DNA of 64,000 nt from Bacillota bacterium (lineage in GTDB: Bacteria > Bacillota > Ch66 > Ch109), in NCBI GenBank assembly GCA_050952625.1, contig JBMNLH010000001.1, positions 1,536,001 through 1,600,000 of the forward strand, written 5' to 3'. How positions within the stretch are numbered: position 1 is the stretch's first letter; each line of letters begins with the position of its first letter. Under the pieces are notes generated by a model that worked only from the letters and a program-made list of their open reading frames with translations, had not been told where the DNA came from and searched no databases. Positions 5,474-48,123 of the stretch are shown in pieces. A program made the translations under genes and the position numbers.

Positions 5474-5597
5474 TGATTGTTATACCCTCCCATTTTTTAG
5501 ATATTAGATTTCTAAGTTGCATTATATAGCGATTTTCGACCTATTTCAAGGATCTTCAACAATGTATACCTGGATAATAATCCCGTCCGATCAGATT

Positions 5598-5618
5598 AAA
5601 AAGAGCCCGAAGGCTCTT
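5598..5618 (-). terminator. Intrinsic terminator of the lipoprotein gene
   Basis: AAGAGCC-TTCG-GGCTCTT followed by a T-run on the minus strand. Confidence 0.8.
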
Positions 5619-5647
5619 AGCAGTAATCCTTATATTAAAGTTAAAGG

Positions 5648-6376: not shown

Positions 6377-6540
6377 TTTAGACTTCCTCCCGTTTTTGTC
6401 TTCATCTAATCAAGAGCCCCTCTAAAAACGGCTGCAAACCTCCTTTCTAATAAAAAGGTATATATATTTTCAACGGTCAGGTTATGTATTCCTGCCAGAC
6501 TAAAATATTCTATATAAAAAATAAAAAATGGCTCGACTCA

Positions 6541-6575
6541 AGAAAAATCCCGCAAAGGCTTGCGGAATTTTTCTT
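6541..6575. terminator. Bidirectional terminator; related hairpins at 10046-10073 and 12753-12776
   Basis: CCCGYAA...TTRCGG stem flanked by A/T runs at all three sites. Confidence 0.75.
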
Positions 6576-6628
6576 TCTGGGGTTCAATGGCATCGGGTTA
6601 TTAATAATTTAGGTTGTAAGCGAGTCTC

Positions 6629-8068: not shown

Positions 8069-8114
8069 CTCCTTTTCTTTATTTAACTAGTCGCGCCTCT
8101 ATATTCACCTTCAC

Positions 8115-9229
8115 CTATTTTGTATCGTTATTATCCTTCTTCTTTTTGTCCCGATCATCTTTGTCTCTATCACCTTTGATTTTATCGTCTTTATCCCTAT
8201 CGCCTTTATCCCTGTCGTGTTTATCCCTATCGTTTTTGTCCTTTTTATTTTTATCTCTATTATCTCTGTCCCTATCGTCTTTTTTGTTCTTTTCGTTGGC
8301 CGTTTTCGCTTGACCAGGATTAGACTTAATATCTTTTTCTTTGTTTGGCTCGTTGGACCGCTTCTTACCTGCTCCGTTATTTGCCCCAGTCTTGTCTTTG
8401 TCAAACTCATTCTTATTTTTGCTTGACCCATTTTTTAAATTAATATTGCGATTGCCTTTGATCTGGCTGCGATATTTGTCAGACCATTGTTTGATTTTTA
8501 GATCCCTCAAACTCCTGGTTTTTAGATCAGTGTCCTTAAGGTTTGGTTCATCCTTTAGGGCATCTTGGTAGAGTAAAAATCGCCCGGTAGAAACCCCAGT
8601 TTGCTTGGCTTGCTGCTGCAATTTCGGCTCAGCCTTGGTGATCAGCACCTCGACCGGGATATTGACAGTTTCTACGGAACTAACAATAGCCTGAAAAACC
8701 AGTTCCTCTTCTACTACCGGCCTCGCGCTAACCGCTACGGCCGGATCGGCTTGAACAATTGTCGTAAAGACCACATTCTCTTTGTTCGGGTCTAAATAAT
8801 GCTGTTGGATCGCGACAGCAATTAAATCAGCGATCGCGGTATAGACATTTTTGCCGATTACCGGCACACTCACCAACAGAAGTTTACCTTCATCGTTATA
8901 CCCTATCCCGTCAATAACGCAGCTGTTTTGATCAACACTCAATTCTAAACTAGGATTAATATCCAAAGAAACATGAGCCACGGCCACCGGCATAGCCGCT
9001 CGATAGAAATACCAACCGACCAGCATGATGATCATGCCGCCGCGGCGATTGAACTCCATCTAATCCATTTTGACCGGGAACTAAGTGGCAGTTGAGTCTT
9101 GATTTCCTCTCCGACCATTACCTTCTCGGCTGGCCGGGGCACTTCATGAAATTCACCCTCCCGAGTCATGATAATACAAGATCTGGGGCTTATTTCCATT
9201 ACGATACCTTGAACTTCTTTACCCATCAT
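8115..9229 (-). CDS. rsgI: Anti-sigmaI factor RsgI, split by a 1-nt deletion near 9035
   Basis: RsgI N-domain (GIVMEI...IMTREGEFHEV) in 9032-9229; VSLDINPSLEL domain and charged tail in 8115-9059; restoring one A (GCA ATG) joins the frames through the TM helix. Confidence 0.88.
8150..8282 (-). repeat. 15-nt coding repeat (DRDKx pentapeptides) in the RsgI tail
   Basis: DRDKN KKDKN DRDKH DRDKG DRDKD DKIKG DRDKD DRDKK. Confidence 0.85.
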
Positions 9230-9954
9230 GACTCCCCCTCGCTGGCTAGCTGAATATAATTTCTGAGGTAGGTGAATTCATCCGCATAATATAAAATCAA
9301 GGTGACGGCAATAATGTACCGACGACCGCGCTCAACTGTCTTGGCGCTAACTCCCATTTGTTCCACCAGTTGTTTAATTGGCAGCTTCTTTTTGGTCAGT
9401 AAGAATTCTAATAGGAGTGTGTTTTTAACCAAAAAGGCAGCTATTCGCAACAAGGTCTTCCGGTAATCAGCATGCTGCGGCGAAGATTTAACCAAATCCT
9501 GAAAGGAAATTTTAAATTTTTTTAGTAATTGATTAAACTGTTGAATTTCTTCTCCCCGTTCCCGGGCGATTTCTTGATCCCAGTAATTATCCCAGGCCGG
9601 CTGAATCTCTAAGCTAGCTGCTACCTGGTTTTGCTCACTGGTACCAACCAGAGGGACGATTTTTTGATAATACCGGTTTTCTTTTCGCCAATAATCATTC
9701 AATCGACTCCGGATGACAATCCGGGCAAAGGCTAAAAACGGTGCCCCCTTATCCGGCTGATAAATCTCAATTGCCTGGTTTAACGCAATCAAGGCAATAC
9801 TTAATTCATCATCCACCCCCCACTCCAGCTTTTTCCCCGCTAGAGCGCAGGCGGTTTGACTAACAAAGGGTCGGCACATCGCTATCAGCTTTTCTCGGGC
9901 CGCACTGTCACCAGCCATGGTCTGATGCAGCAAGGTGTTTAGATCATGATCCAT
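9226..9954 (-). CDS. sigI: RNA polymerase sigma factor SigI
   Basis: DDELSIALIALNQAI, FLAFARIVIRSRLNDY, KTVERGRRYIIA; stop overlaps the rsgI start. Confidence 0.93.
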   Translation of the reverse strand: MDHDLNTLLHQTMAGDSAAREKLIAMCRPFVSQTACALAGKKLEWGVDDELSIALIALNQAIEIYQPDKGAPFLAFARIVIRSRLNDYWRKENRYYQKIVPLVGTSEQNQVAASLEIQPAWDNYWDQEIARERGEEIQQFNQLLKKFKISFQDLVKSSPQHADYRKTLLRIAAFLVKNTLLLEFLLTKKKLPIKQLVEQMGVSAKTVERGRRYIIAVTLILYYADEFTYLRNYIQLASEGES

Positions 9955-9998
9955 TTAGCTTACCTCAGATCAGCCGCGTTTCCAGCCTTAGTAATTAA

Positions 9999-10030
9999 TA
10001 CGAATCAGGGATGGGTTTTGTTGGGGGGGT
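9999..10030 (-). promoter_or_regulatory. Autoregulatory sigmaI promoter
   Basis: Minus strand ACCCCCCCAACAAAA-N13-CGTA matches the sigmaI C-tract/A-tract and CGWA consensus. Confidence 0.75.
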
Positions 10031-10218
10031 ACTTGGAAATAAAGCAAAAAAATCCCGTAAAGCCTTACGGGATAAAAGCAGAAAATAAATGAATCCACTT
10101 AAGATGCTAGAATAAACATTTCGTCATAACTTATCTAAATCCTGCTTGTTTTGTATTTAAACATGTGGAAAATATATCCACTCCGAGGTTGTTTATCCTA
10201 TTAGCGTTCCCTGGGTGC

Positions 10219-12565
10219 TCAAGAGTTAGTTAAATCGTTAACAATCCTGACAATTAACTCTTTAGGCTCTGAACTACAGCTGTTAATTCGCTCTGTAGAA
10301 ACTATTTCCGCGAATACCTTGACAATATCCGGATCAAACTGGGTTCCGGCATTCCTTTTTAGCTCTTCGATCGCCGCTTCCCGACTTAAAGCCGAACGAT
10401 AGGGTCTGGCACTGGTCATGGCATCGTAGGCATCGGCTACGGCTATAATCCTGGCTGCCAGAGGAATTTCCTTCCCTACTAGGCCATACGGATAACCTTT
10501 GCCATCCCATCTTTCATGATGAGCCAGGACATATTTGGCCAATGATGAAAATTTATTAACGGAATTCATAATGCGGTAGCCGGTTTCCGAATGACGCCTT
10601 ATTTTATCCATTTCTAAATCGTTAAGACTGCCCGGCTTTTCCAAGATCCGGTCATCAACTATGATTTTCCCTATATCATGCATTAATCCCGCTATCCGCA
10701 GCTCATGAAGATCATCGTTGCTTAAAGCTAAAGCGGTCCCGAACGCTTCACATAGCTGACTAACCCGGATGGAATGCTGTCGTTCTCGAAGGTTTTTTTC
10801 AAATAAAGCCTTCACGATCACTTCAAGGGTCCTATGTCTTACGCTGGAACTTTCAACCAGTTTCTGTCGGTACATGTTGTCTTCGGCTTTTTTAATTACA
10901 GATGTTATATCAGTCTGGATATCCCACTTTGTTTCCCAGCCAAAAGCGATTGATAAAATGATAGAATTCACATTTTCGCGAGAAATTTTACTATTTATTC
11001 GCCTGACAATCTTGGCGGCTTGCTCTGAATTAGTTTTAGGTAAGAGAATTACAAATTCATCCCCGCCAATGCGGGCAATAATATCATCTGCCCGACATTC
11101 TTTTTTTATAATCTCGACCGCTCGTTTTAAGAGTTTATCGCCAATTGACACTGACAGACAATAAGGTAGTTTTGAATCGTTCCTTTTCCTCATATAATAG
11201 CTTTTCGATCTTCTTGCGTTCAGTTACGTCCAGGATAATAGTCGCACACTGCCGTGGGCGTGGGGAATAGGCAATCACTTCGTAATACTGGTCAGTTTCT
11301 GGATAATAGCACTCATACTGCCAAGTCTCGCCATTCATTGCAACCTGACCATATCGTTCAATCATGCAACGTTTCGTTTTCGGTAAAACTTCAAGCATAG
11401 TTCGACCAATGATCTTTTCCCGTTTTAACTCGGTTAGCCGCTCATAGCTTTCGTTAACGTCAAGAAACCGACAATCAACAACCGTTCCGGCTTCATCGCA
11501 GATCACTTCATGAACAGCAACCCCTTGCTTCATCTGAGTAACCAGCAGTCGATATTTTTCTTCACTCTGCCGAAGCGTCTCTTCCGTCTTTTTACGCAGC
11601 AAGGTCACCCCGATGCCATCCGCCACGATCTGTAATAGACTAACATCTTCCTTCTGCCATTGCCGGGGAACGAGACAATCGTCAAAACCAATGTACCCCC
11701 AAAACTCGTTCCCACAGTAAATTGGGAGGATTAGAATTGAGATAATCCCCTGTGGTACTAAATATTTTTGCTCCGATTGGTCCATTTCGGCAACGATCCT
11801 CATATAGGGGCGACGTGCTTGCAGCACCTTGAGCAGGTACGGTGAGGCATTGCGATAAGGCAGACGCTGCAAACAACAGGCATCAATTTGAGGGGTGATC
11901 CCAGCCGCAGTTGCCTCATGTATTTGTGTCATACATAAGCCCACTTCAGGATCATTTTCATTTTGAAAGATATAAACTCGACTCACTTGCGAAACTTCCC
12001 GCAAAATATGTAAAACACGGTTCAATTGCTTATCGATATCATTAGGTTCCATAAGAACCTTCATGCAACTTGCTGCGGCTGCCTCATAATCAAGACGCCG
12101 CCGCAGTTCCTTTTCGGCCCGTTTTTGCTCAGTGATATCTCTGATTGCTCCTTGATAGCCAATAAACCTGCCGGTGCTGTCCTTTCTAATCACCGCGTTG
12201 ATCAGGACAGAAATAATGGTGCCATCTTTCTTGCGCAAGCTGGCTGGATAGTCTTTAGCTGCTCCCTGTTCCAGGATAACCCTGAGAAATCGGGCCCGTT
12301 CCGCTGGATCTGCATACAGCTCACTAACGTTAACCGTCTTTAGCTCTTCCCGGCTATCGTAGCCTAAAGTTTTGATTAAGGCATCATTAAAATCAAGAAA
12401 AGAGCCATCTGCAGACGTAATAAAGACACTATCGCGAGAAGTAACGAAAAATGCCCGGTATGTGTCTTCGCTTTCTTTACAAATCATTTCCATTAGTTGG
12501 TGCTTGATCGACTCTTCCGCAATATAGATATCTTTTATTTCACTCTCCTGATTATTGCTCATCAT
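10219..12565 (-). pseudogene. PAS-GAF-PAS/(half-GGDEF)/HD-GYP c-di-GMP enzyme with internal deletion and frameshift near 11145
   Basis: ORF 11135-12565 has PAS, GAF and PAS, ending ERFKTTLLSV; ORF 10219-11193 begins mid-GGDEF (IGDKLLK...RIGGDEF), then an intact HD-GYP (HDIGK, HHERWDGKGYP). Confidence 0.8.
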
Positions 12566-36035: not shown

Positions 36036-36824
36036 TTAACTTGTCCCACAACCGGAAGAACCGTCCCTCCGGCTGGTGTAGATCAATATGGCATCTCTGA
36101 GAAACTCAGCGGCCCCTGGTTGGACGGCATCATAATAGGCAGTAAATCTCTCATCATCAACATACATCTGGGCCAGACCAGCGTGGGCCTCTTTGGAATA
36201 GGTGGGCCAAAAATAACACAGCCATTGCCGATGCAGGTCCGCTGTTTGCTGGGCTAACGGTCCGGCCGGGTCACCGGTGGCCATTGCCGCCTTAAGCGTA
36301 TCCAGTACACTGGTGCTGAGTTTTTCCATCTCAACATACTGCTCCTCGGTCATACCATGTAATTTTTTATTTGATTGATCAACAACCTTGTCCCCATATT
36401 TAGCTCTGATTTCTTGGCCATATTTACGCTCATTCTCATCAATCAATTTTCGCTTGAAACCGGCAAATTTTTCTTGATCAGTCATCGTAATTCTCCCTTC
36501 TGTTAAGGCGATCGTCTTATCCACGTTGGCAATTAGTAGATCTAGTTGTTTTTTCTTGGCCAACAGTTTGGCGCGATGGTCTCGGAGGGCTTTAAGACTG
36601 TCAAAAGATGGATCCATGATGATCTCCTTGATCTGCTCCAAACCCACACCAAGTTCCCGGTAAAAAAGGATTTGCTGTAGCTGATCCACCTCGGCTTGAC
36701 CATATATCCGATACCCTGACGAGTTAATTCGGGCTGGCTTAAGCAGCCCAATTTCGTCGTAATACCGGAGGGTTCTGGTGCTGATGCCGGCTAGTTGGCC
36801 CAATTTTCGCACCGTATACTCCAC
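36036..36824 (-). CDS. MerR-family regulator with TipAS antibiotic-recognition domain (TipA/Mta-like)
   Basis: TLRYYDEIGLL...GYRIY, LQQILFYRELG; C-terminal LAQMYVDDERFTAYY. Confidence 0.92.
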   Translation of the reverse strand: MEYTVRKLGQLAGISTRTLRYYDEIGLLKPARINSSGYRIYGQAEVDQLQQILFYRELGVGLEQIKEIIMDPSFDSLKALRDHRAKLLAKKKQLDLLIANVDKTIALTEGRITMTDQEKFAGFKRKLIDENERKYGQEIRAKYGDKVVDQSNKKLHGMTEEQYVEMEKLSTSVLDTLKAAMATGDPAGPLAQQTADLHRQWLCYFWPTYSKEAHAGLAQMYVDDERFTAYYDAVQPGAAEFLRDAILIYTSRRDGSSGCGTS

Positions 36825-36846
36825 GCCATCACCCCCTGCTCAAACT

Positions 36847-36877
36847 AATATACACCTTAACGCAACGTTAAGGTCAA
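36847..36877 (-). promoter_or_regulatory. MerR-type promoter/operator
   Basis: TTGACC-N19-TATATT with the palindrome ACCTTAACG-N3-CGTTAAGGT in the long spacer. Confidence 0.88.
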
Positions 36878-37156
36878 TGGGATATTTTCTTAATAATCAC
36901 CCAGGCCCGTTAGGGATAATTGCTCCATATAGTTGATTTAATGGTTTAATTAGCATATTATGCATAAGGAGAGATTGTTATATAATTTGATTGGTATCGA
37001 ATTAGAAATTAGTTGTTGAAAAGCTAAAGGATGGTGATAAAATTTGTTATAATATATAATTAATTGTTTGAATATGTTGTGATATGTCAAAATAACATTT
37101 TACAAACTGGTGAAGCTGTTACATATTTTAAGCCAAATTTTTTTAGGGGTGATAAT

Positions 37157-38278
37157 ATGGCTAAATCTGTCATCGTTGCTTGTGATACCGGAAACGATAC
37201 TATTAAAGTAAAGGTAAATGATAAAATATACTATATTCCCAGTATTATGAAAATAAATCCCCGCCCAAGGTTAATTTTTGGCCAGGGCGATGAGGGACAC
37301 CCCATAGATTATTTAGATGTCACTGTTGAAAATGACAATGTATCCGGGAATTATCATATAGGAAATTTAGCCATGTTTGGAGTTAACCAGGAAAGCCTGG
37401 GAGGATTAAAATCAAATAACAAATTGCTTATGGTGTGTAGGATGACAGCTATCGCATATGCTCTGGCTATGGAATATCCGTTAGAAACTGACTTCGACTT
37501 ATACCTGGGTGTTGGATTACCAGTCAGAGAATTCTTCTGGCAGAATGAAAAAGGCGAATATGATTTTTCCAAAGTTGAAAAATATAAACACAGCATTGCC
37601 GGAATTCACAAAGTAAAGTTCAATACTAGCCTTATGAACTACAAAACAATAAACATTGCAATAGCACCGGATAATCTATCGGTTACCCCTGAGGGTTATT
37701 CTGCTTTAACCTCCATTTTAATGCATGAAAATATAGACCCAGAATTTGTCAGGTACTCAAGAAAAAATGCTATTTCCTTTTGCCTGGATATTGGATCTAT
37801 AAGCTGTGATGTATCGGCGATGATCAATGGAAAATATTTCGCCCCAGGGATGTTTGGGTTTGATATTGGCATGAGTACCGCTATAGATGAATTATGCGCT
37901 GGACTCCGTAATAGGACAGGTATTAAAGATATAACTAGATATGAGTTAAATACCTGTTTATTTGATAGAGATTTAATGGGAATATATAAGATTAGTAAAT
38001 ACAATTTTAATCTTAATAGAGAGAAGCTCCCTTATTACACAGCACTGGTGGATACGATAACCCATCGTTTTAAGGAAAAACTTAGGGAAAACGGAGTTGA
38101 TATTCGCCGGATTGATGTACTGTTCCTTGTCGGAGGCGGTAGTACTGAAGTAGGAGACATGATAATCGATGAATTAAAAGAAGATATACCTGAATTTGTA
38201 AACTTTCAGCCTGAAGAGGCAATAATCAAAAACCTGCTTGGTTATGAAATGGCTGCTAGAAAATTGGTAACAGAATAA
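37157..38278 (+). CDS. ParM/StbA-family actin-like ATPase
   Basis: Phosphate-1 CDTGNDTIK, VGLP, connect-1 TPEG, phosphate-2 LDIGSISCD, adenosine LVGGGS; AGGGG RBS. Confidence 0.88.
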   Translation: MAKSVIVACDTGNDTIKVKVNDKIYYIPSIMKINPRPRLIFGQGDEGHPIDYLDVTVENDNVSGNYHIGNLAMFGVNQESLGGLKSNNKLLMVCRMTAIAYALAMEYPLETDFDLYLGVGLPVREFFWQNEKGEYDFSKVEKYKHSIAGIHKVKFNTSLMNYKTINIAIAPDNLSVTPEGYSALTSILMHENIDPEFVRYSRKNAISFCLDIGSISCDVSAMINGKYFAPGMFGFDIGMSTAIDELCAGLRNRTGIKDITRYELNTCLFDRDLMGIYKISKYNFNLNREKLPYYTALVDTITHRFKEKLRENGVDIRRIDVLFLVGGGSTEVGDMIIDELKEDIPEFVNFQPEEAIIKNLLGYEMAARKLVTE

Positions 38279-38410
38279 CATTTCATTATATAAAGTAACC
38301 TGCTAAGCAAATGAAAATCAAGGATTAGCAGTTTATTAAGCTATTTAATATGGCTACACCCCTCTAGCTTATGACGAAAGAATTCCTGATTTTTAAGTGG
38401 GGATGATATC

Positions 38411-39703
38411 GTGTTTTTATTCTCAAAAAATAAAAATATAAAATTTCACGCTAAACCCAATACTTACATGGAAGGCAGCATCAATGGGCAAGGTGACGTA
38501 AGGATCGAAGGGAGTATTTTGGGTAATATCCATGTCAATGGTGTTGTAATTATTGAGAAAAACGGAAATGTAAAAGGGAATGTGATTGCCGACAATGTTA
38601 AGATTCACGGTCAGGTAGAAGGTAATATAATAACCAGTGACTGTCTAATGCTTTTTGCGACTGGACGGTTTTATGGTGATGCTAGGGTCAAAGACTTTAA
38701 GTCGGACCCAGGAGCTGTGTTCGTAGGAAACTGCATCATTGTAGAGGATAATTCTGCCGGAGAGTATGATTTCGTTTCAACTACAATAAGTATGCCCGAA
38801 GTAACTTGTGAAGAAATAGATGAAAAACCGATAAATGAACTGATAAATGAAAAACCGATGGATGAACCTATAGATGAAAATAACGCAGTTGTTATCAGTC
38901 TTGAAGAACAGGATATTTACGATAAGAAGGATGATCAGGATAGTACAACTGGGGAGCTAGAAGTTCTTAAGGTTTTAGAATCAGATAAGATCAGTTCTAT
39001 TACCACGGAGGCGTCTGCCGCCGATTTGATCTGCGCGATTAAAGAGGAAACGCTAGAAAACGAAAACGATATTCTCTTCGACAATCATGTCAAAGAATAT
39101 ATTGCTGAGGATAATAATAATCCTAAAAACCCAGAGGTTCTCAAGGTTATAGAATATGATAAGGCTGATTATATTGCCACAGAGTCGGCTGCCCCAGACT
39201 TAGTCCGCGAGATTAAAGAAGAAATGCCTGTAAGAGAAGAAATACCGGTGCCTGTAAGCGAAAACGACATTATCCTGGACAATCTTACCGAGGAAGATGT
39301 TACTGAGAAAGATATTGCCGAGAACGATGTTACCGAGGAAGATGTTGCCGAGGAGAATGATAATCTTAAAAGTGTTGAGGTTGTCGAAGCAGAAATGCCT
39401 GAGGTAAGTCAAGATACGGCTGACAAGCTGGTTCTTCCTCTGAACGGTGAAACATTAGATGAAACAATAGGAGAAACAGTTGATGAAACATTAAAGTTCA
39501 ATCACGAAGAAGATCTCATGGATAAAATAGTAAATACTCAGGTCGATTCGATCAAGCCTGAGGAAAAGATTATCGATATACCTGAAGATAAGTCTATCGA
39601 TATACCTGAGGATAAAACTATCAATATAAATAATATTGCTATCGATGATCATGTATCAACAGTCAAGGAGCAAAAAAAATTTACCATCAAAAGATTTGTT
39701 TAA
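38411..39703 (+). CDS. Bactofilin (polymer-forming cytoskeletal) domain with long acidic tail
   Basis: EGSI...VRIEGSILGNI...NGNVKGNVIADNVKIHGQVEGNI...GAVFVGNC beta-helix; MFLFSK N-terminus; ~320-aa D/E-rich tail. Confidence 0.88.
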   Translation: MFLFSKNKNIKFHAKPNTYMEGSINGQGDVRIEGSILGNIHVNGVVIIEKNGNVKGNVIADNVKIHGQVEGNIITSDCLMLFATGRFYGDARVKDFKSDPGAVFVGNCIIVEDNSAGEYDFVSTTISMPEVTCEEIDEKPINELINEKPMDEPIDENNAVVISLEEQDIYDKKDDQDSTTGELEVLKVLESDKISSITTEASAADLICAIKEETLENENDILFDNHVKEYIAEDNNNPKNPEVLKVIEYDKADYIATESAAPDLVREIKEEMPVREEIPVPVSENDIILDNLTEEDVTEKDIAENDVTEEDVAEENDNLKSVEVVEAEMPEVSQDTADKLVLPLNGETLDETIGETVDETLKFNHEEDLMDKIVNTQVDSIKPEEKIIDIPEDKSIDIPEDKTININNIAIDDHVSTVKEQKKFTIKRFV

Positions 39704-39779: not shown

Positions 39780-40030
39780 TCAGTGTTTCAAAATTTGAAG
39801 ATGATCTAGCGGCCAATAAATGCAAAAGGCTTTTCCAATAAGATGGTCACGAGTCAACCAGGCTTCCCAAGGATGACTGTCATAACTATTATTGCGATTA
39901 TCACCCATAACAAAATAGCTATTAGGCGGAACCACGACAGGACCGAATTGATAATTCATGCTTGCACTCAGATAAGGTTCTTGCTGAACCTGATCATTTA
40001 TATACAGTTGGCGATTTTTAATTACCGGGT
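39780..40030 (-). pseudogene. Signal peptidase I C-terminal fragment
   Basis: LYIND..QEPY, YFVMGDNRNNSYDS, IGKAF..YWP; the catalytic Ser/Lys region is absent. Confidence 0.8.
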
Positions 40031-40509
40031 CTATGATCACATTTCTCATGGGAATTTGAAAACCAAACATATCCGGTTCTTGGTCCTTGATGAGGCCGAT
40101 CGGATGTTGGACATGGGCTTTTTGGGTCAAGTAGTGCGAATTATCAAAACCCTCCCCAGAAACAGGGTGACCCTGCTTTTCAGCCACCATCCCCCCCGAA
40201 GTCCGTAAAATCTGCCGGGATTATATGAAAAATCCGGTAACCATTGAGATTGAATCGCCGACCAAGACCGTGGATACCACGCAACAGGTATACTATCGGG
40301 TAAATAAAAACGAAAAGATCACCCAATTGAACCGACTGCTGCTGGTTGAACAGCCGGAAAGCTGTGTGATCTTCTGTAACCAACGTAATACCGTTGATAA
40401 GGTGCAGAGTTTCTTGAATCGCAAGGGGTATGCTTCTCAGACAATGCACGGTGATATCCCCCAGGTTAAACGGATGAAGACGATCCAGCAGACCGGAAAC
40501 ACCGGTTAG
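40025..40509 (+). pseudogene. Internal fragment of a DEAD-box RNA helicase (DbpA-like), frameshifted
   Basis: RVYDHI, LVLDEADRMLDMGF, TLLFS then a frameshift, VIFCN, HGDIPQ; both termini missing. Confidence 0.85.
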
Positions 40510-40510
40510 A

Positions 40511-40756
40511 CTACCGCTCATGAATGTCCATCCTCTCCCAAGAAATCACACCCTGGGTTCCCAAATCCAGGGACTCCTCTAATACCGCTAAATGACGGGT
40601 GCGGGCTTTTTGATAAGCTTCCTCCTTTTGGAGCAAATCCTCTAAAACTTTAGCTAAAACGGCAGAAACAGAAGTGTTTTGCTCTATAGCTACGTGTTTC
40701 ACTCGGCGAAGAGTAGTATCCTTGGGCAAAGAAAGGGTAATGTTTTGGTATTCCAC
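40511..40756 (-). CDS. Ribbon-helix-helix antitoxin-like protein (orphan)
   Basis: QNITLSLP...NTSVS...C-terminal W.R..IHER is typical of antitoxins that precede PIN toxins. Confidence 0.7.
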   Translation of the reverse strand: MEYQNITLSLPKDTTLRRVKHVAIEQNTSVSAVLAKVLEDLLQKEEAYQKARTRHLAVLEESLDLGTQGVISWERMDIHER

Positions 40757-40887
40757 CTAAATCACCTCCACCAATTCAATGTAGCACGTATTTCGGTGAA
40801 GGGCCAGTTGGAAACCAGCCTTTGACCTCATTGCTTGGCGGCGTTATAATATTCCTAGATATTATTATTTGTAAAGGAAGATTAACG

Positions 40888-41133
40888 ATGAAATCTACCG
40901 TTACTATTTCCAGTAAGAGGCAAATAACAATACCCGCTGATTTATTCAGATTGTTAAAACTACAACAAGGACAAAAACTAATTGTTGAAGTAAATGAAGG
41001 CCGATTGATTATTTCACCTCGGCCAGAAAGCTTGACAAAAGAATTACGCGGCCTTACCAGAGGCTTATATGGAAAAAACGCTAGCGAAATTGACGATTAC
41101 GTTAAAAAGGAACGAGATGAATGGCACAATTAG
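40888..41133 (+). CDS. AbrB/MazE-type antitoxin
   Basis: TISSKRQITIP, YVKKERDEW; overlaps the PIN gene. Confidence 0.85.
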   Translation: MKSTVTISSKRQITIPADLFRLLKLQQGQKLIVEVNEGRLIISPRPESLTKELRGLTRGLYGKNASEIDDYVKKERDEWHN

Positions 41134-41594
41134 AATCATTGATGAAACAAATCACCCAGTACAAAAATCTATTTCTGGATACTAATGCCATCATCTATTT
41201 TTTAGACGATGTGCCCGGTTATGCAGATTTGATGGAACTAATTCTAAACTTGGCCGAACAAGGCCAAATGAGCATTAATCTATCCGTGATCTCCGAAGCC
41301 GAACTCCTGGTTAAACCTTATCGCGAAGGTCTTCTGGAAACCGTCAAGGCCATAAAGTTCTGGATTGAAGAATTTCCGAATCTACAAGTTATTCCGGTCT
41401 CTCGAGAAATTGCGCACAAAGCAGCGGATCTGCGTGGCAAACTGAGATTAAGGCCACCAGATGCATTAGTATTGGCTACGGCAATTAATAGCAATAGTGA
41501 GGTTATTGTCGGTAACGATTTCGAAATGCTACGAAAAGCCGCTGCATACCTGCCAGGGATTATTTTACAGAATTACGTTCCTAATGCCCAATAA
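41121..41594 (+). CDS. PIN-domain (VapC-like) toxin
   Basis: FLDTNAIIY, SEAELL, PDALVLATA, GND. Confidence 0.88.
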   Translation: MAQLESLMKQITQYKNLFLDTNAIIYFLDDVPGYADLMELILNLAEQGQMSINLSVISEAELLVKPYREGLLETVKAIKFWIEEFPNLQVIPVSREIAHKAADLRGKLRLRPPDALVLATAINSNSEVIVGNDFEMLRKAAAYLPGIILQNYVPNAQ

Positions 41595-41695
41595 AACAAA
41601 GACTTCACTTTTATTGGAATAATTATTATACAATGCCACCGGTAACTACAGGCTTTTATGGTGGTATCAAGTAAGACCTCTGGAGGGTTTATCTT

Positions 41696-42208
41696 ATGGA
41701 TCAACCGGTACCGGATTATTTGCGCCAAGATTTAAAGATCGTCTTTGTTGGTTATAATCCCAGTCTAATTTCCGGTGAAACCGGACATCACTTCGCCAAC
41801 GCCACCAACCGATTTTGGAAAGTGCTTTTTCTGGCTGGTCTTACGCCCCGAGTGTATCAACCTCATGAAGATGGCTGCCTGTTGGAACTTGGTTATGGCC
41901 TGACGAATATTGTTGCCCGTCCTACCCGGTCGGCGGCTGAAATCACCTGTCAAGAATACCGCGAGGGACAAATACAGCTTCAAAATAAGCTAAGCTATTA
42001 TCGACCCAGAATTGTTTGCTTCGTCGGCAAAGGTGTTTACCTGGAGTACAGCGGGTTGCGGAAGGCAGAATGGGGAATCCAAGACAAACAAATAGTCGAA
42101 GGAGTAACAGATTTTGTAGCTCCTTCGACCAGCGGCCTGGTCCGCATGAGGCTGGAAGAATTGGTTGAAATATATGGATTGTTGGCAGAGATATCCCGAA
42201 AAGATTAA
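41696..42208 (+). CDS. mug: Mismatch-specific DNA glycosylase (Mug/TDG family)
   Basis: FVGYNPS, HHFAN..NRFW, GLTNIVARPT, PSTSG. Confidence 0.88.
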   Translation: MDQPVPDYLRQDLKIVFVGYNPSLISGETGHHFANATNRFWKVLFLAGLTPRVYQPHEDGCLLELGYGLTNIVARPTRSAAEITCQEYREGQIQLQNKLSYYRPRIVCFVGKGVYLEYSGLRKAEWGIQDKQIVEGVTDFVAPSTSGLVRMRLEELVEIYGLLAEISRKD

Positions 42209-42239
42209 TTGGCCGGGGGACGGACAGAGGTGTGAACAC

Positions 42240-42465
42240 TTCCTGTCACGTCACTGGTTATAATCACGACCTTTTCGCCGGGTTTGACAATTACCCGCAG
42301 CCGGGGCGTGCCGATAGGATGTTCCACTGCGTAAACCACTTCTGCCACTTCCGCCACTTCCGGCCGTCCGGGCAGCATCGGATTTACGCTTAATACTTTG
42401 AGCAAATTATTATCGTTTATCGCAAACTCCTAGCAATCACGCCCATAGCCGAACTTCACCTGCAT
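42240..42465 (-). pseudogene. LarA (nickel lactate racemase family) N-terminal remnant
   Basis: MQVKFGYG then an in-frame TAG; HPIGTPRL..IVKPGEKVVIITSDVT; truncated. Confidence 0.7.
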
Positions 42466-42482
42466 GGTAAATGCCTTGGTGT

Positions 42483-42647
42483 TCACTTGCCCTTTTTTTT
42501 ATAAGCCACAGTGCAGATTAAGGCCATGAGCATTAGGATAACCGTCGGCCCAGGGTTGCCTCCGGTAGTAACGCCACGAGCAGCGAACCCGAGTGAGGCA
42601 GCAGCAAAGATCAGTGCTAGTATTCTCAGGACATTTCTATTAAACAT
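42483..42647 (-). CDS. Small two-TM membrane protein
   Basis: AGGGGG RBS; two hydrophobic helices and a KKKGK tail. Confidence 0.55.
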   Translation of the reverse strand: MFNRNVLRILALIFAAASLGFAARGVTTGGNPGPTVILMLMALICTVAYKKKGK

Positions 42648-42786
42648 TTTGAAACCCCCTCTGAACCTCCCCATGGCTAAAGTTATCTATACTCTTAACG
42701 AGAGAGCCTGTTAAAATAAGGCTCTCTCATTCTTTATATATTCACAACGTATATTTTGTTTCCTTATAAGAGGCAACAACTCAATC

Positions 42787-43176
42787 TTACTCCAGCGATT
42801 CGTAAAGTTTTCCCCGCAGTATTTTCAGTTCCTCTTTCAACCGCTTGTTTTCGGCCTCCAGTTCCTTGATTCGCTTGTTTTTCGCGGCAATAATGATGTC
42901 CTTGCTGGCATCGGTCATTTCCCGTTTTATCTGCTTCGGAGAAGGAGCGGCCGCCTGCTGCTTACGGAGGTTCTCGATGCGCTCCTTGAGCTCCTGGTGG
43001 GTGTAAAGATAGGACTTGCTCACCCCAGCCTTCAGAGAAACACTGTTGAAGTTGATTTTCTCCCCGGCTTTAATCAGCTTTTGGATTGCCTCGTCAACCT
43101 TTTTTACGGTTTCCTCGCTCTTACGCCTGGCGTGTTTTTTTATTCCTTCCGTGTTACGCTGGTGTTTGACGGACAT
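42787..43176 (-). CDS. TnpC-like (DUF6262) protein
   Basis: INFNSVS..AGVSKSYLY HTH plus C-terminal coiled coil. Confidence 0.85.
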   Translation of the reverse strand: MSVKHQRNTEGIKKHARRKSEETVKKVDEAIQKLIKAGEKINFNSVSLKAGVSKSYLYTHQELKERIENLRKQQAAAPSPKQIKREMTDASKDIIIAAKNKRIKELEAENKRLKEELKILRGKLYESLE

Positions 43177-45121
43177 TTAAACGTTCCTCCCCCACGTACT
43201 CCCGTCCCTTCTTGCCTGCCAGGTGACGGGTATGGCCATCTTTTAGAACGGCCAGAATCGCTTCGTAACGTTCCAGAAGGGCCTCGTTTTTCTCTACCCA
43301 GATGGTCCGGCCCTGGGCTTTGCCGCGCTCGATGACAGCCTTTACCTCCCTGATTTCCGCCTCAAACTGCGGGATAAAATCAGGGGTGGTGCACAAATTG
43401 CGGCAGGTCAGGCAGGGGTTCAACTGGTGCTTGCACTCCACTTTATTGGGCTTGAGGCAATAACCCAAAGGCGTCCTCACGGCGTCCAGGTTATAGCGGA
43501 TATACTCCCATTCAATTAGGTTTTCGTTCTCGATTTCGGAAGGGGCAATCTTCACAGGCTTACCCGTGGGGTCAATCCGGAAAAGGCCGTTCTTAGTAGC
43601 TTCCTTCCAAGACTTCCGCATGGTGGTATCGAGAATCTTGGCGTAGCGCAGGGTCATTTCCGGGGAAGCGTGAGCCATCCACTTTTGGACATGAAGAATA
43701 TTCATCCCGTTGTTAATTAATTCAACGCCTTTGGTGTGGCGAAAAGCGTGGTTGCGAAAATGGAATAACCGACCCTGATCGTCTACGATGTTGCATTTCT
43801 TGGCCAAGCGGTTGAGAGCTTCTCTAATTACCGCCCCTTCTGGTGGCCGGCCCTTGCGTTTTCCATTCAGACGGACAAACAGTAATTTATTAGGGTTGTT
43901 TTCCGGCGTGCTTTTTTCTTTCACATCATCAACTACGGCTTGAACTACCGCAGCCACCTCATCGGTAATAGGGACACGGTGATTTAATACTTGGGTTTTA
44001 AGAATATCGCCACAGAGCCACCAACCCTGAGCAGTACGATCCAGACATTTATCATAACGTAGATTCAGGATGTCAGATATGCGCCAACCTGTAGCACGGA
44101 GCAAAATAACGACGGGGATATACTCCGGTGGTGCCAACTGTTCTAAATTATCTTCTAATTGTTTCAGGACCCCTTCAGAAATAAATTTAATATCTTCTTC
44201 TGACCGCTTGGCTAACTTTGGAAAATCTTCCTTGAACAACAGTGAAGAGTGTGGTTTTTCTGGCGCCTCAGGATACTCGGCCCGCTGGATATGATCAAAA
44301 AAAACCCGCAGGCTAATTAGGCATTCACGATGTTGTTTTTGCCAGTCTTTTGTGTATGACCGGTACCACACTAAGTAATTCTCTATATCCTTTCGGGATA
44401 AACTCTTTAGATCTTGCCAATGAGGATATTGCTCATGAATAAAACGCAGGAACAAACGTATGGCCATTAAATCTGTTGCACATTGGGCATATGACCGGAC
44501 ACCTACACGCGCCTTTAGGTACCTTTTAGCCAGAGTTCGGAAGGGAATGGGAATGTTTTCGAAAGAAAGAAGGTAATCGGCCCTATTTTGAGTATATTTC
44601 GCTCCCGATATTTTTCGCATATCCCAAACGTCTTTTACAAATTCTTCCCGGTCGTCGTAGAAGTTGACTATAAACTCATATACCTGTCGTACTAAAGTTT
44701 CATAAGTATGACTGGACAAACGGCTTTTATTAACTGAAAATCCTTGGTCAATCAGATAAGAACGCCACCTAATCATAGCCTTTTCTCTTTCTAGCTCTGC
44801 AAAACTTCTGATCCCGGGGTAAGCTTGTACTAGAAAAGTGGCTAGGCGGTTAAGATGACTTCCATAGCTAGTAGCTGTTTGTAGCTGTAGGGTATGTTCT
44901 TGAAGGCGGCGAACTAAAAAAAACTTAATTTCCTCCTTGATACCTGGTTGTAAACGGGAAAAGTCAATAGTTTTACTGGTTGATGTCGATTTTTTAGTCC
45001 GAAACTCATCAAAAATGTGGTCGGTAATATCCCATTGATCATTTTCCCAGTAACCTTTTAGGGTTTCCTTAATCTCCTGCCATTTTGCCGGTGTCGGGAC
45101 CGTTCTGTAAACTGTGATCAC
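43154..45121 (-). CDS. Tyrosine recombinase, Tn554 TnpB-like
   Basis: TGWRISD, HAFRHT, MAHASPEMTLRY; C-terminal GYC...C...CLTCRNLC. Confidence 0.92.
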   Translation of the reverse strand: MITVYRTVPTPAKWQEIKETLKGYWENDQWDITDHIFDEFRTKKSTSTSKTIDFSRLQPGIKEEIKFFLVRRLQEHTLQLQTATSYGSHLNRLATFLVQAYPGIRSFAELEREKAMIRWRSYLIDQGFSVNKSRLSSHTYETLVRQVYEFIVNFYDDREEFVKDVWDMRKISGAKYTQNRADYLLSFENIPIPFRTLAKRYLKARVGVRSYAQCATDLMAIRLFLRFIHEQYPHWQDLKSLSRKDIENYLVWYRSYTKDWQKQHRECLISLRVFFDHIQRAEYPEAPEKPHSSLLFKEDFPKLAKRSEEDIKFISEGVLKQLEDNLEQLAPPEYIPVVILLRATGWRISDILNLRYDKCLDRTAQGWWLCGDILKTQVLNHRVPITDEVAAVVQAVVDDVKEKSTPENNPNKLLFVRLNGKRKGRPPEGAVIREALNRLAKKCNIVDDQGRLFHFRNHAFRHTKGVELINNGMNILHVQKWMAHASPEMTLRYAKILDTTMRKSWKEATKNGLFRIDPTGKPVKIAPSEIENENLIEWEYIRYNLDAVRTPLGYCLKPNKVECKHQLNPCLTCRNLCTTPDFIPQFEAEIREVKAVIERGKAQGRTIWVEKNEALLERYEAILAVLKDGHTRHLAGKKGREYVGEERLNVRQTPA

Positions 45122-46248
45122 TGTTCAGAGCCCTCCTTTTGCTGCCGTTTAAAGCGCATTTTTTCCTCTGCCTTCTCCCAGTCCTGGCGCAGGTCTTCGT
45201 CACTCGGGTGCAGGTAAATTTGCATGGTGGTCTGAACATGGGCATGTCCAGCACGTTTTTGCAAGTGTTCCGTTTTCCAACCGGCCCGGCGCAGTTCGGT
45301 TAAGGAACTATGTCGGAGTACATGGGGGCTGACGTTTATCCCTGTTTTGGCCTTTAGCCTGCGGAAAAGAGAAGCAACATCCTGGTATTCCATGGGCCAG
45401 TGCTTGTTTTCCCCAGACAGCTTGATAAAAACATGGTTTGTATCCACTTCATCTGTGTGGTATTCGGCCACGTAATCGAAAAACAGGTTGATTAAATCCG
45501 GGGAAACGTCCACCGTCCGGGGGCTACAGATGGTCTTGATCTCAGCAAGATTAGGGAGTTCGCCCCTGTCTCGGATATGTATTTTTCGGGCATCGGGCTC
45601 AAAGTCTTCCAGCCACAGGGCCAGGGCCTCACCAATGCGCATGGAGCTTTCCCACAAAAGCTGGATTAAAAATTTATCCCGTAAGTTTGAGCAGGCGTCA
45701 ATTAATTTGCCCACCTGCTCTTTGGAAATGGTCTTGGGCCGGGAACGGCGAACCTTAATTTTTAAAATCTTGCCCGGGTACTCCTTGTCCTTGTTGATGT
45801 GGTAGAGGAAGTCCTTAAAGCCTCGTCTGTTCCCAGGGATGGTCTTTTTTAGCCTCTCAGAAAGCTGTACGCTGTAGTCTTCGTGCCGCATGAGGTAGTC
45901 GTAGAAATTGAGGACCGTGGAAATTACGGTGTTCACGGTGGCCGGCCCGCGGGGAGACGTTACGGGTGTCGCCGGGATTACTTTCAGGTTCCCGTAGGGA
46001 TTTTGGAGCCAGCGCATGAAGGCGGCCATTTCGTCGATGCTGATTTTACGGTAATCCAGCCCCTCCTGCTCAAGGAATTCGAAAAAGAGTTTCAAATGCT
46101 GGCAATAGGCGCGGAGGCTGTTCCGGGCAGCCCCACTGTTATCCTTAAACTTGACGAACTGCACAACAGGAAGGACGGGTTCACTATTTGAGTCAACTAA
46201 CATATATCGAGTTTTTCCTTCGGAAGTTGTGATCGTTTCCACCCTCAT
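45118..46248 (-). CDS. Tyrosine recombinase, Tn554 TnpA-like
   Basis: SMRIGE, PHVLRHS, GHAHVQTTMQIY. Confidence 0.92.
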   Translation of the reverse strand: MRVETITTSEGKTRYMLVDSNSEPVLPVVQFVKFKDNSGAARNSLRAYCQHLKLFFEFLEQEGLDYRKISIDEMAAFMRWLQNPYGNLKVIPATPVTSPRGPATVNTVISTVLNFYDYLMRHEDYSVQLSERLKKTIPGNRRGFKDFLYHINKDKEYPGKILKIKVRRSRPKTISKEQVGKLIDACSNLRDKFLIQLLWESSMRIGEALALWLEDFEPDARKIHIRDRGELPNLAEIKTICSPRTVDVSPDLINLFFDYVAEYHTDEVDTNHVFIKLSGENKHWPMEYQDVASLFRRLKAKTGINVSPHVLRHSSLTELRRAGWKTEHLQKRAGHAHVQTTMQIYLHPSDEDLRQDWEKAEEKMRFKRQQKEGSEQ

Positions 46249-46674
46249 TGGGGAATACCACCATCCAAAGCAATGTTTTCTATATTATACTACCAGTACT
46301 ATATTAACAAAATATATTTAAATAGTTTTTTAGGAAGAAAAATAGGGATAAACCCTTTCGTAGAATACCATAAGGTCTATCCCTTGCCTTAGTGCATTTA
46401 ACTAAAGCCAGGGGGTTCTAAGACCCCGTGTTGGCTACCATGAGTATTTCCATGTCTGCGTTCCTCTCTCAGCCGGCGAACCTGGGCTGAGCCTTAGAAT
46501 CTCGCTTCATCCAGAAAACTTCTTGCGAACGACCAGCTCTGTCCTTACCTTTTGGTCGAAGGAGCCCTCCAGGTTTCCCTTTCGGTTCTCGCTGGTTCGG
46601 CATCGGGCCACCCGCGTTCGCCAGGACGGTTCCGCCCTGCCCGGTTTGGGTCGGTATAGCCCAGGGTTTGAGCT

Positions 46675-48123
46675 TTATATCCCCATGCTGGTGGGTTTAT
46701 AGTAGTTGGCCGCTTTAAGGTTTTTGATCGTTTGCGTTAACATCGGTTCGTATTTCGGCCAGTCGGTTTGGGCTTTTTTCAAATCAACCTGCCATTTCCC
46801 GGTTTTATCTTGATCCACATACCGGGCTAGATAGGCGGAATAAAGGTCTCTTTGCGCTTTAACGCCACATTCACATTGGTGCCATCGTTTAGCCAGGGTT
46901 TTCTTTTCTTTTTTCCCGCATTGACAGGTTTGGGATAGGCTGGTTGGGCCAGCGGGGAATTCTATTACTTCTCCAGTCCGTTCAGTCTTTTGCTTTAACC
47001 GGGCGACGAATGTCCCCGGCCCTCGAAAGTTAACTGTTTTGCCAAAGTTTTTCTGGAATGACTTGTATGATAGAGCTTCCAGATAAATTCGGTTACCAGT
47101 TCGCAAGATTTCGTTAATCATCTTTCCATGCAGGGATTTTCGATATTCGGCTTGTTTGCGGTGAATTTCCGCGTGCTGGTTTTGAGTTTTTAAGTAGCGT
47201 TTGGATTTACGCCATTTCAGGTGGCCTTTTTTGATTGTCCCGTCTGGGTTATAGTTGTCCGGGTTATTCGCCCTTCTTTGCCGGTCCAGTTTGCGTTGCA
47301 GTTGTTTGATTTCTTTTTGCTGGCTTTCCAGCTCTGGGCAGAAGGGGCTTAAATTGGCTTCTGTTTCGCTTATCCTGGCAATAGTGGAAGGTCCGATGTC
47401 TAACCCCACAATCCCTTCTCGAATCTGATTTTGGGGTTTCTGATAAGGGGTGCCTTCACAGATTAGTTGGACGAAAAACCGAATTTTGCCGCCGATGATT
47501 CGTTTAACTATTCGAACGTATTTTACTCGACTATCTAGACCATGTTTTATTACCGGGTCATTAGAGTTAATTAGCGGCTTAAGCTCTAATCCATTCCATA
47601 TCACCCGATTATTTCGCCAGCGGATACCGGTTGAATTTGATTTGCCTTCAATACTGTTCAATTCTCCGTAGCGTTTAAATCTAACTCGCTCCGCTTCACC
47701 AGTTAGAGTTTTTTCGACTGCTTGATAAGCTCGGGAGGCTATCTTTTGAGCAGCTTGCGAATCCAGGTGTTCACCAATCCAGGAATTCCGAATTCGAGTG
47801 GCGTATCCGTGAAGGGCGTATTCAGAAAATCTGTATTTTTTTCTGGCTTCTTTAAAAACAGCTGACCGGGCGGCTTTTTCTGATTCGGTGTTACCAGGCA
47901 TAGTTTTGGCCTGACGATATAGTCTGGATCTAATCATCTGTTCTTTTCTTTTTAAGGCTTCCCCTAAACAGGCATTGTATAGTTGTCGGCCAGCTTCCAT
48001 TCGGGATAATATTGTCTTTTTCTGATGGGTATTTACTACTAAAGGCATTTCAATAATGAATGAAGGAGTTTTTGACTTGCCTGTTTTTTGTTTGCGTTTC
48101 TTGGCAATCAGGATCACCTCCAA
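46675..48123 (-). CDS. tnpB: RNA-guided endonuclease TnpB
   Basis: RuvC-I VGLDIG, RuvC-II YLEAL, zinc finger SQTCQCG...CECG, RuvC-III QRDLYSA. Confidence 0.9.
   Translation of the reverse strand: MEVILIAKKRKQKTGKSKTPSFIIEMPLVVNTHQKKTILSRMEAGRQLYNACLGEALKRKEQMIRSRLYRQAKTMPGNTESEKAARSAVFKEARKKYRFSEYALHGYATRIRNSWIGEHLDSQAAQKIASRAYQAVEKTLTGEAERVRFKRYGELNSIEGKSNSTGIRWRNNRVIWNGLELKPLINSNDPVIKHGLDSRVKYVRIVKRIIGGKIRFFVQLICEGTPYQKPQNQIREGIVGLDIGPSTIARISETEANLSPFCPELESQQKEIKQLQRKLDRQRRANNPDNYNPDGTIKKGHLKWRKSKRYLKTQNQHAEIHRKQAEYRKSLHGKMINEILRTGNRIYLEALSYKSFQKNFGKTVNFRGPGTFVARLKQKTERTGEVIEFPAGPTSLSQTCQCGKKEKKTLAKRWHQCECGVKAQRDLYSAYLARYVDQDKTGKWQVDLKKAQTDWPKYEPMLTQTIKNLKAANYYKPTSMGI

Follow-up and report, generated by a model that had tools for sequence, protein, structure and literature searches.

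A ParM-type actin gene paired with a long-tailed bactofilin gene in a low-GC islet of a Bacillota chromosome: a candidate module of two cytoskeletons

ParM-type actins have long been regarded as plasmid segregation motors. Chromosome-encoded members of the family are now also on record, among them Dh-cParM1 and Cb-cParM, for which the available text of the report raises possible roles beyond plasmid segregation (Ali et al., J Biol Chem 2025, PMC12270681). In Anabaena sp. PCC 7120, the chromosomal ParM of the CorMR system forms cortical filaments that control cell shape and its partner CorR, according to the accessible part of the preprint, brings CorM to the membrane with an N-terminal amphipathic helix and binds it with a C-terminal helix (Springstein et al., bioRxiv 10.1101/2025.06.27.661541; structure 9rmi). 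As far as the accessible text of this 2025 work on chromosomal ParMs and CorMR extends, ParM-type actins can be repurposed by changing the hold of the adaptor (PMC12270681; bioRxiv 10.1101/2025.06.27.661541). This study was concerned with a locus in a 64,000-nucleotide stretch of a Bacillota chromosome, the whole of which is called the window below, where a gene for a ParM/Alp-family actin-like ATPase (37157-38278, plus strand, 373 amino acids, aa) is followed by a gene for a bactofilin (38411-39703, plus strand, 430 aa). The interpretation that we favor, by a slight balance of probability, is that a membrane-anchored bactofilin scaffold replaces ParR as the polymeric adaptor of a ParM-type filament, acting through its terminal peptide, and that the two genes form a mobile module. 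Its basis is in silico: the identity of the two protein families, their recurrent pairing, a conserved end peptide, a disordered tail, ParR and parC looked for and not found, and a predicted contact.

Work on bactofilins provides the second point of reference. In the BacP (BacNOP)-PadC-ParABS system of Myxococcus xanthus, the bactofilin has a long disordered tail and a KKKVVVKK motif is implicated in PadC binding, and in Caulobacter a client protein of BacA binds the bactofilin core, not the tail (both from the available part of PMC12448750). A Chlamydia bactofilin has been reported in a preprint without an interaction with MreB, and hence offers no precedent. The literature searched offered no case of a bactofilin linked directly, as a dedicated partner, to an actin homologue, ParM and other actin-like proteins included, subscription journals and supplementary files lying outside that search. 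The word "bactofilin" does not occur in the available text of PMC12270681 or of bioRxiv 10.1101/2025.06.27.661541, and the supplements of both may list more chromosomal ParM loci.

The longest open reading frame (ORF) of the actin gene begins with a TTG at 37064. The ATG at 37157 is most likely the true start, because it is preceded by the ribosome-binding site AGGGGTGA and because homologues of the protein begin at the same point. The protein matches Pfam ALP_N (E 2.3e-9, 38 bits with a cut-off of 26.3) and phrog_691, a phage "partition protein" family (E 1.2e-20), and its score with Pfam MreB-like_C (26.9 bits) is slightly below the cut-off of 27.8. The NCBIfam ParM equivalog model gives 18.6 bits, far below its cut-off of 417, which indicates that the protein is not an R1-type ParM orthologue. 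A preliminary description of this DNA, made from the letters alone, had recognized an actin-fold ATPase with its phosphate and adenosine motifs, and this is borne out by the ALP_N match and by a six-row alignment (A1), in which the phosphate-1 motif D10-x-G12-N13, the phosphate-2 motif D211-I-G213...D218 and the adenosine motif G326-G327-G328 are all invariant; the third glycine of the adenosine motif is variable in the wider clade.

The AlphaFold2 model of the actin has a predicted local distance difference test score (pLDDT) of 87.3 and a predicted template-modeling (TM) score, pTM, of 0.88. Its best Foldseek matches are Ta0583, BtParM, pCBH ParM of C. botulinum and Dh-cParM1 (E 1e-19 to 1e-21; query-normalised TM-scores 0.55-0.75), and the further matches to solved structures include pSK41 ParM, CorM (rank 16), Alp7A, Alp12 and R1 ParM. 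A comparison by sequence with solved structures ranks Dh-cParM1 (8x1i) first (E 1.1e-10). The gene is single-copy in the genome of the window, and its closest plasmid or phage homologues are 24-27% identical to it. The actin family appears from these comparisons to be derived from the partition actins of mobile elements, although no sequenced plasmid or phage carries a close member of it. By analogy with its relatives, the protein presumably makes nucleotide-dependent filaments.

The bactofilin gene starts with a GTG at 38411 that follows the ribosome-binding site GGGGATGA at the 3' end of the 132-nucleotide (nt) intergenic spacer (38279-38410, plus strand, 33% GC). The bactofilin of a second locus, L005, which is described below, keeps the same start context. 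The product matches PF04519 over residues 16-108 (E 1.8e-22, 79.9 bits with a cut-off of 27.9), and its structure model is all-beta, with a confident beta-helix at residues ~8-114 (pLDDT 82-96) that corresponds to the bactofilin polymerization domain (38432-38752, plus strand). Ribbon-helix-helix families gave no match to the protein, the ordered part of which is the beta-helix. At the N-terminus, the peptide MFLFSKNKNIKF (38411-38446, plus strand) resembles, with two extra hydrophobic residues, the published bactofilin consensus MFSKKKK, which is a demonstrated membrane-targeting sequence in the available text of PMC12448750. By this likeness, the N-terminal peptide may target the membrane. 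The corresponding N-terminus in L005, MLWWSANRNISL, has a single basic residue.

Beyond the beta-helix lies a tail (residues 115-421; 38753-39673, plus strand) with 90 aspartate or glutamate residues against 24 lysine or arginine residues, a net charge of -66. The pLDDT of the structure model is below 50 from residue 115 to the C-terminus, as in a disordered region. Internal repeat families (D1-D5 and D8) run through the tail, and short tandem units occur at 39446-39633, with a 12-nt GETxDET-type unit and a 24-nt PEDKxIDI-type unit. The number of DETxGET-type units differs between the near-identical copies P0007 and P0008, and since repeat copy number varies among copies from other assemblies that are otherwise 85-100% identical, the tail is variable in length within the population. 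The preliminary description had given this protein an MFLFSK N-terminus, a terminal KKFTIKRFV and an acidic tail of ~320 aa. Both peptides are present as claimed, and the tail is indeed long and acidic, although its length is 307 aa.

The C-terminal peptide KKFTIKRFV (residues 422-430; 39674-39703 with the stop codon, plus strand) is the part of the protein beyond the core that can be followed between homologues. It carries a net charge of +4, and four of its nine residues are hydrophobic. The variants found are KKFTIKRFV in the window, KKFTIIRFS in P0008 and P0009, and KKFIIKKYN in L005; K422, K423, F424 and I426 are invariant in all five bactofilins compared, the tails of which are otherwise unalignable and range from ~170 to 340 aa. 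The close relatives of the long-tailed bactofilin are all homologues bearing this peptide. Within the core, the window protein is 57% identical to its L005 counterpart and at most 36% identical to the other bactofilins fetched (39% across one 62-residue stretch). In the genome of the window, no other open frame of at least 60 aa ends with the motif. A 71-aa open frame, considered as a second client carrying the end peptide, fits only a looser pattern and was judged a chance match.

The complex of the actin (8-row alignment) with the last 40 residues of the bactofilin (4 rows used) was predicted in three runs, which scored 0.82, 0.82 and 0.83 with 100% agreement of the contacts between runs, against 0.00 for the best of three controls. 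According to the calibration of the predictor, 58 of 80 solved complexes and 2 of 110 mismatched pairs attain such a mark, counts that are only rough with our own alignments. The bactofilin side of the predicted interface is made up of exactly residues 422-430, and the actin side of residues 194, 196, 337, 341-342, 344-351 and 353-354. The closest residue pairs (actin-bactofilin 348-425, 347-427, 346-428 and 345-429) are antiparallel, and in our reading of the model the end peptide adds a beta-strand beside the short actin strand 347-349. Judging from the order of secondary structure, the predicted docking strand (residues 344-351, IPEFVNFQ; codons at 38186-38209, plus strand) would sit at the exit of the C-terminal helix from the second domain, close to the point at which the two halves of the fold meet. 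The ParR peptide binds R1 ParM in that general region.

Residues on the actin side separate the actins closest to the window protein from the rest. This close clade has four members: the window protein, P0002 (73% identical), P0003 (71%, from L005) and P0004 (60%). Positions I344, E346, F347, V348 and F350 are invariant in these four and replaced in four actins of the wider clade, P0010-P0013; for example, K or N stands in place of E346, and A, V or a gap in place of F350. Similarly, D194 and E196 are acidic in the close clade, and in the wider clade, which is without the bactofilin, the two positions hold S, N, T or E and A or K, respectively. The acidic residues E346, D194 and E196 fit, as a putative complement, the +4 charge of the peptide. 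The preliminary description had looked to the tail end of the bactofilin for physical contact with the actin, and the prediction and the conserved terminal peptide agree with that proposal; the complex prediction supports binding without showing it.

An adaptor of the usual kind was sought at both loci. No plausible ParR-like small ORF is present in the 332-nt AT-rich non-coding leader of the window (36825-37156, plus strand, 30% GC) or in the 487-nt spacer of L005, and no DNA-binding Pfam domain lies inside the low-GC islet that holds the two genes, as the preliminary description had said of ParR. Iterated parC-like repeats were found neither at 36825-37156 nor in the 132-nt spacer, where short degenerate sites might escape such a search, and no Rfam family reaches its gathering score in the spacer, which was scanned for regulatory RNA. 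An 81-aa ORF at 40511-40756 (minus strand) looks ribbon-helix-helix-like by eye. It has no Pfam hit, is separated from the islet by a helicase remnant and is without a counterpart in L005. The gene immediately downstream of the actin is the bactofilin, not a small DNA-binding protein. The locus is also chromosomal, 1.57 Mb along a 1.73-Mb contig of a 2.9-Mb genome, not on a plasmid or prophage-plasmid. Because both the adjacent adaptor and the plasmid location of ParMRC are absent, the locus is not, judged by its sequence, a ParMRC member.

The position after the actin gene was also read in distant relatives. At three loci and one plasmid, the gene following a distant ParM encodes a small protein in three of the four cases, which upholds the earlier statement that the bactofilin fills the slot of ParR. 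In genome G351, a chromosomal ParM of 399 aa is followed by a 189-aa protein (L015, 753500-767000 of C12; 8754-10535) that is basic in its N-terminal part, continues as an acidic tail and finishes in a short hydrophobic end, ...GGFLSKMNK. By our reading of the translation, this protein has an adaptor layout like that of ParR and Alp7R, which the bactofilin mirrors. A 174-aa protein with a repetitive tail lies downstream of a distant ParM in G478 and is likewise adaptor-like by reading of its translation, and in the Thermoanaerobacterium plasmid pMU3262 a 107-aa protein, annotated only as hypothetical, begins 22 nt after the ParM gene. By this comparison of sequences, the bactofilin appears to occupy the adaptor position and to repeat the adaptor layout, in which a disordered linker joins an anchoring domain to a conserved C-terminal peptide.

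A different arrangement surrounds P0010, the nearest actin of the wider clade, which is 42% identical to the window protein (L027, G474:C65:111000-127000, 5330-12445). It is the first gene after an integrase that has inserted right next to tmRNA (5330-5712) and smpB, and downstream of it follow ~1.3 kb without a convincing ORF, then another recombinase-like ORF and an FtsK-like translocase of 565 aa. From its gene content, this element looks like an integrative conjugative element, with a ParM that has no obvious adaptor.

The pair of genes recurs outside the genome of the window, as the preliminary description had anticipated. Locus L005 lies on a 22-kb contig of a metagenome-assembled genome of the Clostridiaceae (G401), where the actin P0003 (3710-4840) is followed by a 292-aa bactofilin (5328-6206). 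L005 is flanked by asnS, an Asp23-like gene, a tRNA and an MFS transporter on one side and by aroA, aroC and aroK on the other, none of which is present in the window, and no mobile genes occur within the 10.8 kb read. The spacer between the two genes is 487 nt long, compared with 132 nt in the window. The two loci have no ends and no non-coding motifs in common, which had been sought as the signature of a mobile cassette. Thus far, the pair is kept in both of the two close-clade loci with readable context; this count covers the window and L005 and leaves out P0002/P0054 (13.2-kb contig), P0004, P0008 (11.9-kb contig) and P0009. Both genes are intact, and between the two loci the rate of non-synonymous change, dN, is 0.18 for the actin and 0.27 for the bactofilin core, the synonymous sites being saturated, so that no dN/dS ratio is given. 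The comparison of the two sequences indicates that the actin and the bactofilin core are under constraint.

Relatives of either protein are scarce. An exhaustive search of 1.84 billion representative proteins with the actin returned 45 hits at E <= 0.001 and six at E <= 1e-30, and a word-indexed search of 5.8 billion proteins returned six actin relatives and three bactofilin relatives, missing the bactofilin of L005. The actin was not found in six other genomes of the order (one of the same genus, four more of the family and one more of the order). Of 400 more genomes sampled from the phylum, seven had an actin relative at E <= 1e-20, and all of these relatives are distant. In the order of G401, 2 of 149 genomes had a match, one being G401 itself, and sampling of its class gave a match in 1 of the 399 genomes scored (G401; two others were not scored), with no further member of the close clade in either set. 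Joint Genome Institute metagenome contigs and viral contigs, queried with the actin alignment, gave no confirmed close relative.

A metagenome scan with the bactofilin alignment recovered five distant bactofilins, 32-36% identical, none of which has an actin nearby in the 1.3-12 kb of DNA available for each. Conversely, no bactofilin adjoins a distant actin at any of ten loci in nine genomes (G026, G113, G152, G296, G322, G351, G358, G474 and G478, the last with two loci). Five of these genomes have no bactofilin match, and the matches in G358, G474 and G478 are on other contigs. G351 was considered as a further pair and rejected, since its bactofilin-like 260-aa ORF lies ~6.4 kb from the distant ParM with five unrelated genes between them.

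The genome of the window and that of L005 each have one additional, separate short bactofilin. In the former, this is a 133-aa ORF of the canonical short form (contig C4:164735-168025, locus L001), which adjoins a gene with an M23 (LytM)-type peptidase motif, recognized by eye, and a 209-aa protein of no assigned family.

Some evidence bears on expression. The best promoter-like site in the leader, TTGAAA followed after 16 nt by a TG-extended TAAAAT, occupies 37016-37043, and the spacer at 38279-38410 showed no terminator-like site. Metatranscriptome contigs from four runs of four studies match pieces of both genes with zero differing letters: 37169-37342, 37333-37509, 37483-37734 and 38145-38357 for the actin, and 38769-38926, 38936-39109, 39120-39320, 39154-39438 and 39524-39679 for the bactofilin. 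One of these contigs (38145-38357) extends 79 nt beyond the actin stop codon. RNA libraries can contain DNA and the contig depths cannot rank genes; equally, stretches without cover (36500-37134, on the side of the MerR regulator described below, and 40056-40300) are not evidence of silence. Co-transcription of the actin and the bactofilin is plausible. The 2.9-kb stretch was also present, at half or more of the sampled words, in 16 DNA runs from bioreactor, anaerobic digester and biogas metagenomes, one of which may be the source of the assembly.

The two genes lie, intact and both on the plus strand, in an islet of low GC content at ~36.8-40.05 kb of the window. The AT-rich block mentioned in the preliminary description is real: in 1-kb windows, GC is 34-39% at 37-40 kb compared with 45-52% at 33-37 kb. 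By gene, GC is 36.5% for the actin, ~38% for the bactofilin and 39% for a 3' fragment of an S26 signal-peptidase gene at 39780-40055 (minus strand; profile positions 87-168 of 168), and it is 45.5% for the whole genome. The signal-peptidase fragment is probably debris brought in with the islet and marks its right edge. On the left, a MerR/TipAS-type regulator (36036-36824), divergent from the islet, has a host-like GC of 48% and belongs to the flank. This gene has no match at E <= 1e-30 in the six other genomes of the order, so that comparison with empty sites gave no borders for the islet and the neighborhood outside the islet also appears variable or accessory. Neither the actin nor the bactofilin matches a defense system in PADLOC.

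A plus-strand remnant of a DEAD-box helicase abuts the signal-peptidase fragment, and together they make up a region of debris at 39780-40509. The remnant begins at motif II, the DEAD-box motif, with the earlier motifs gone, is frameshifted near 40208-40225 and ends inside Helicase_C. Farther downstream are a MazE-like antitoxin and a PIN toxin (40822-41594), a UDG-family glycosylase (41696-42208), DUF6262 with two tyrosine recombinases (42787-46248) and a TnpB/Cas12f-like protein (46675-48123), so that a cluster of genes typical of mobile elements spans 40822-48123. The foreign GC, the gene debris at the right edge and the mobile-type genes downstream point to horizontal acquisition of the islet into a variable, element-rich stretch.

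These observations can be assembled into a mechanism. The ParM/Alp-type ATPase would form nucleotide-dependent filaments, and the bactofilin would assemble on the membrane, without need of a nucleotide, into a scaffold anchored by its N-terminal peptide. The bactofilin domain would stand in for the ribbon-helix-helix DNA binder of ParR, Alp7R and CorR, and many flexible acidic tails of ~300 residues would each display a basic and hydrophobic nine-residue tip. Each tip would add a beta-strand to an edge strand in the C-terminal end of the actin fold, and actin filaments would in this way be recruited to the scaffold, tethered there or nucleated on it. What is carried would be the scaffold or a membrane site, not a centromere, and the role, by analogy with CorMR, would be filament positioning or control of cell shape. 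In a form of this proposal to which we give a little less than an even chance, hundreds of tails of a static, membrane-bound bactofilin polymer capture or nucleate the actin-like filaments, so that two unrelated cytoskeletons are coupled in a single self-contained and horizontally mobile module, which positions or pushes membrane-anchored scaffolds and through them poles, septa or envelope sites, not DNA. An undescribed actin-bactofilin system had already been suggested in the preliminary description. Of that suggestion, the pairing and the predicted contact hold; membrane binding, polymerization of either protein, real binding, filament dynamics, the thing moved or shaped and the cellular role are still inference.

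Several points weigh against a working module in which the bactofilin tail holds the actin. All support for it is in silico, the adjacency rests on only two loci, and the module is very rare, being found in 2 of roughly 1,100 genomes searched, which indicates that it is dispensable. The two genes may be transcribed separately, given the spacers of 132 and 487 nt, the longer of which leaves room for a separate promoter, and no RNA contig bridges the spacer to 38411. The predicted interface shows no excess conservation, with 7 of 15 positions invariant in the close clade compared with 194 of 373 overall, the pLDDT of the partner in the complex is 42-49, the alignments are shallow (8 and 4 rows), and docking as a strand is unlike the helical C-terminal peptide of CorR. 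Alternatively, the C-terminal peptide may bind lipid, as a second motif of that kind. Basic amphipathic C-termini comparable to such a motif occur in MinD and FtsA. On that explanation the genes still cooperate, and the end peptide binds membrane or associates with itself while coupling to the actin is indirect or goes through the bactofilin core. The basic and hydrophobic composition of the peptide is in its favor, as are the low partner pLDDT, the merely average conservation of the interface and the Caulobacter BacA client that binds the core and not the tail (available text of PMC12448750). We nevertheless consider it unlikely, since the complex scores 0.82 against 0.00 for the controls with the same nine residues in all runs, the docking strand and its acidic neighbors are confined to the clade with the bactofilin, and a membrane-targeting-like peptide is already present at the N-terminus.

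The genomic setting suggests a different alternative, namely that the locus is left over from the partition system of a mobile element, in which ParM has lost ParR and parC, the bactofilin is a passenger and any remaining activity serves the element. The foreign GC, the edge of debris with its signal-peptidase fragment and broken helicase, the toxin-antitoxin genes, tyrosine recombinases and TnpB-like gene 1-8 kb downstream, the match of the actin to a phage partition family and the position of P0010, which follows an integrase next to tmRNA within an element that also encodes an FtsK-like translocase, are all consistent with this history. Both genes are intact and constrained (71% identity between the loci for the actin and 57% for the bactofilin core), the L005 pair sits among housekeeping genes without mobile genes in the stretch read, RNA libraries hold pieces of both genes, and the conserved end peptide with its predicted fit to the actin suggests a working pair, all of which makes a mere remnant improbable in our view. 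Least probable, and by our estimate very much so, is that the two are unrelated neighbors transferred together by chance. Only two loci can be verified and one has a 487-nt spacer, as would be expected of such neighbors, but adjacency, order and orientation are kept in two unrelated contexts where the surrounding non-coding DNA is unlike, the close relatives of the long-tailed bactofilin all share the end peptide, both host genomes own a separate short bactofilin, and the contact prediction passes its controls.

Should the bactofilin indeed replace ParR, the repurposing would be more radical than in the chromosomal ParMs described in 2025, with the DNA-binding domain of the adaptor exchanged for a second, nucleotide-independent polymer. 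The pair would then provide a compact two-gene model for a static scaffold that organizes a dynamic filament, and it would extend the idea that long bactofilin tails tether clients through short linear motifs, an idea so far attached mainly to Myxococcus BacP. With two genes and a predicted motif of nine residues, the proposal is directly testable, even though the hosts are uncultured digester bacteria.

Among known systems, CorMR would be the closest working analogue, and the analogy is one of arrangement, the bactofilin not being a CorR homologue. As described in the accessible part of the CorMR preprint, a chromosomal ParM-type actin, there without a role in DNA segregation, has a neighboring partner, which in the case of CorR binds the membrane N-terminally and the actin C-terminally. 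CorR keeps the ribbon-helix-helix dimer of ParR, whereas the bactofilin is no such (ribbon-helix-helix)2 ParR homologue and instead combines a domain expected to self-polymerize with a linker of ~300 residues; the CorR peptide is an alpha-helix in a pocket, whereas addition of a beta-strand is predicted here. The host phylum is also different, and the link to MinC belongs to CorMR, none being known here. With the type II ParMRC systems (plasmid R1; Alp7AR, pSK41, BtParM and pCBH ParM), the locus shares the actin family and fold, the order of actin then adaptor and the layout of the adaptor, and it differs in lacking a DNA-binding adaptor, in the centromere repeats, none of which were found, and in its chromosomal site. 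The chromosomal cParM loci differ as well, as ribbon-helix-helix cParR genes lie downstream of cParM1 in the available text of PMC12270681. The resemblance to BacP, as far as it is described in the available part of PMC12448750, lies in a disordered C-terminal tail of exceptional length that carries a short motif, basic and hydrophobic, which in BacP is implicated in recruiting a soluble partner of the partition type. In BacP, the partner PadC holds the Walker-type ATPase ParA, whereas the predicted partner here is an actin-type ATPase encoded by the neighboring gene, and the motif is at the extreme C-terminus. What sets the locus apart is the combination: a ribbon-helix-helix domain replaced by a putative bactofilin polymer, a linker of ~300 residues and a predicted strand-like docking on the actin.

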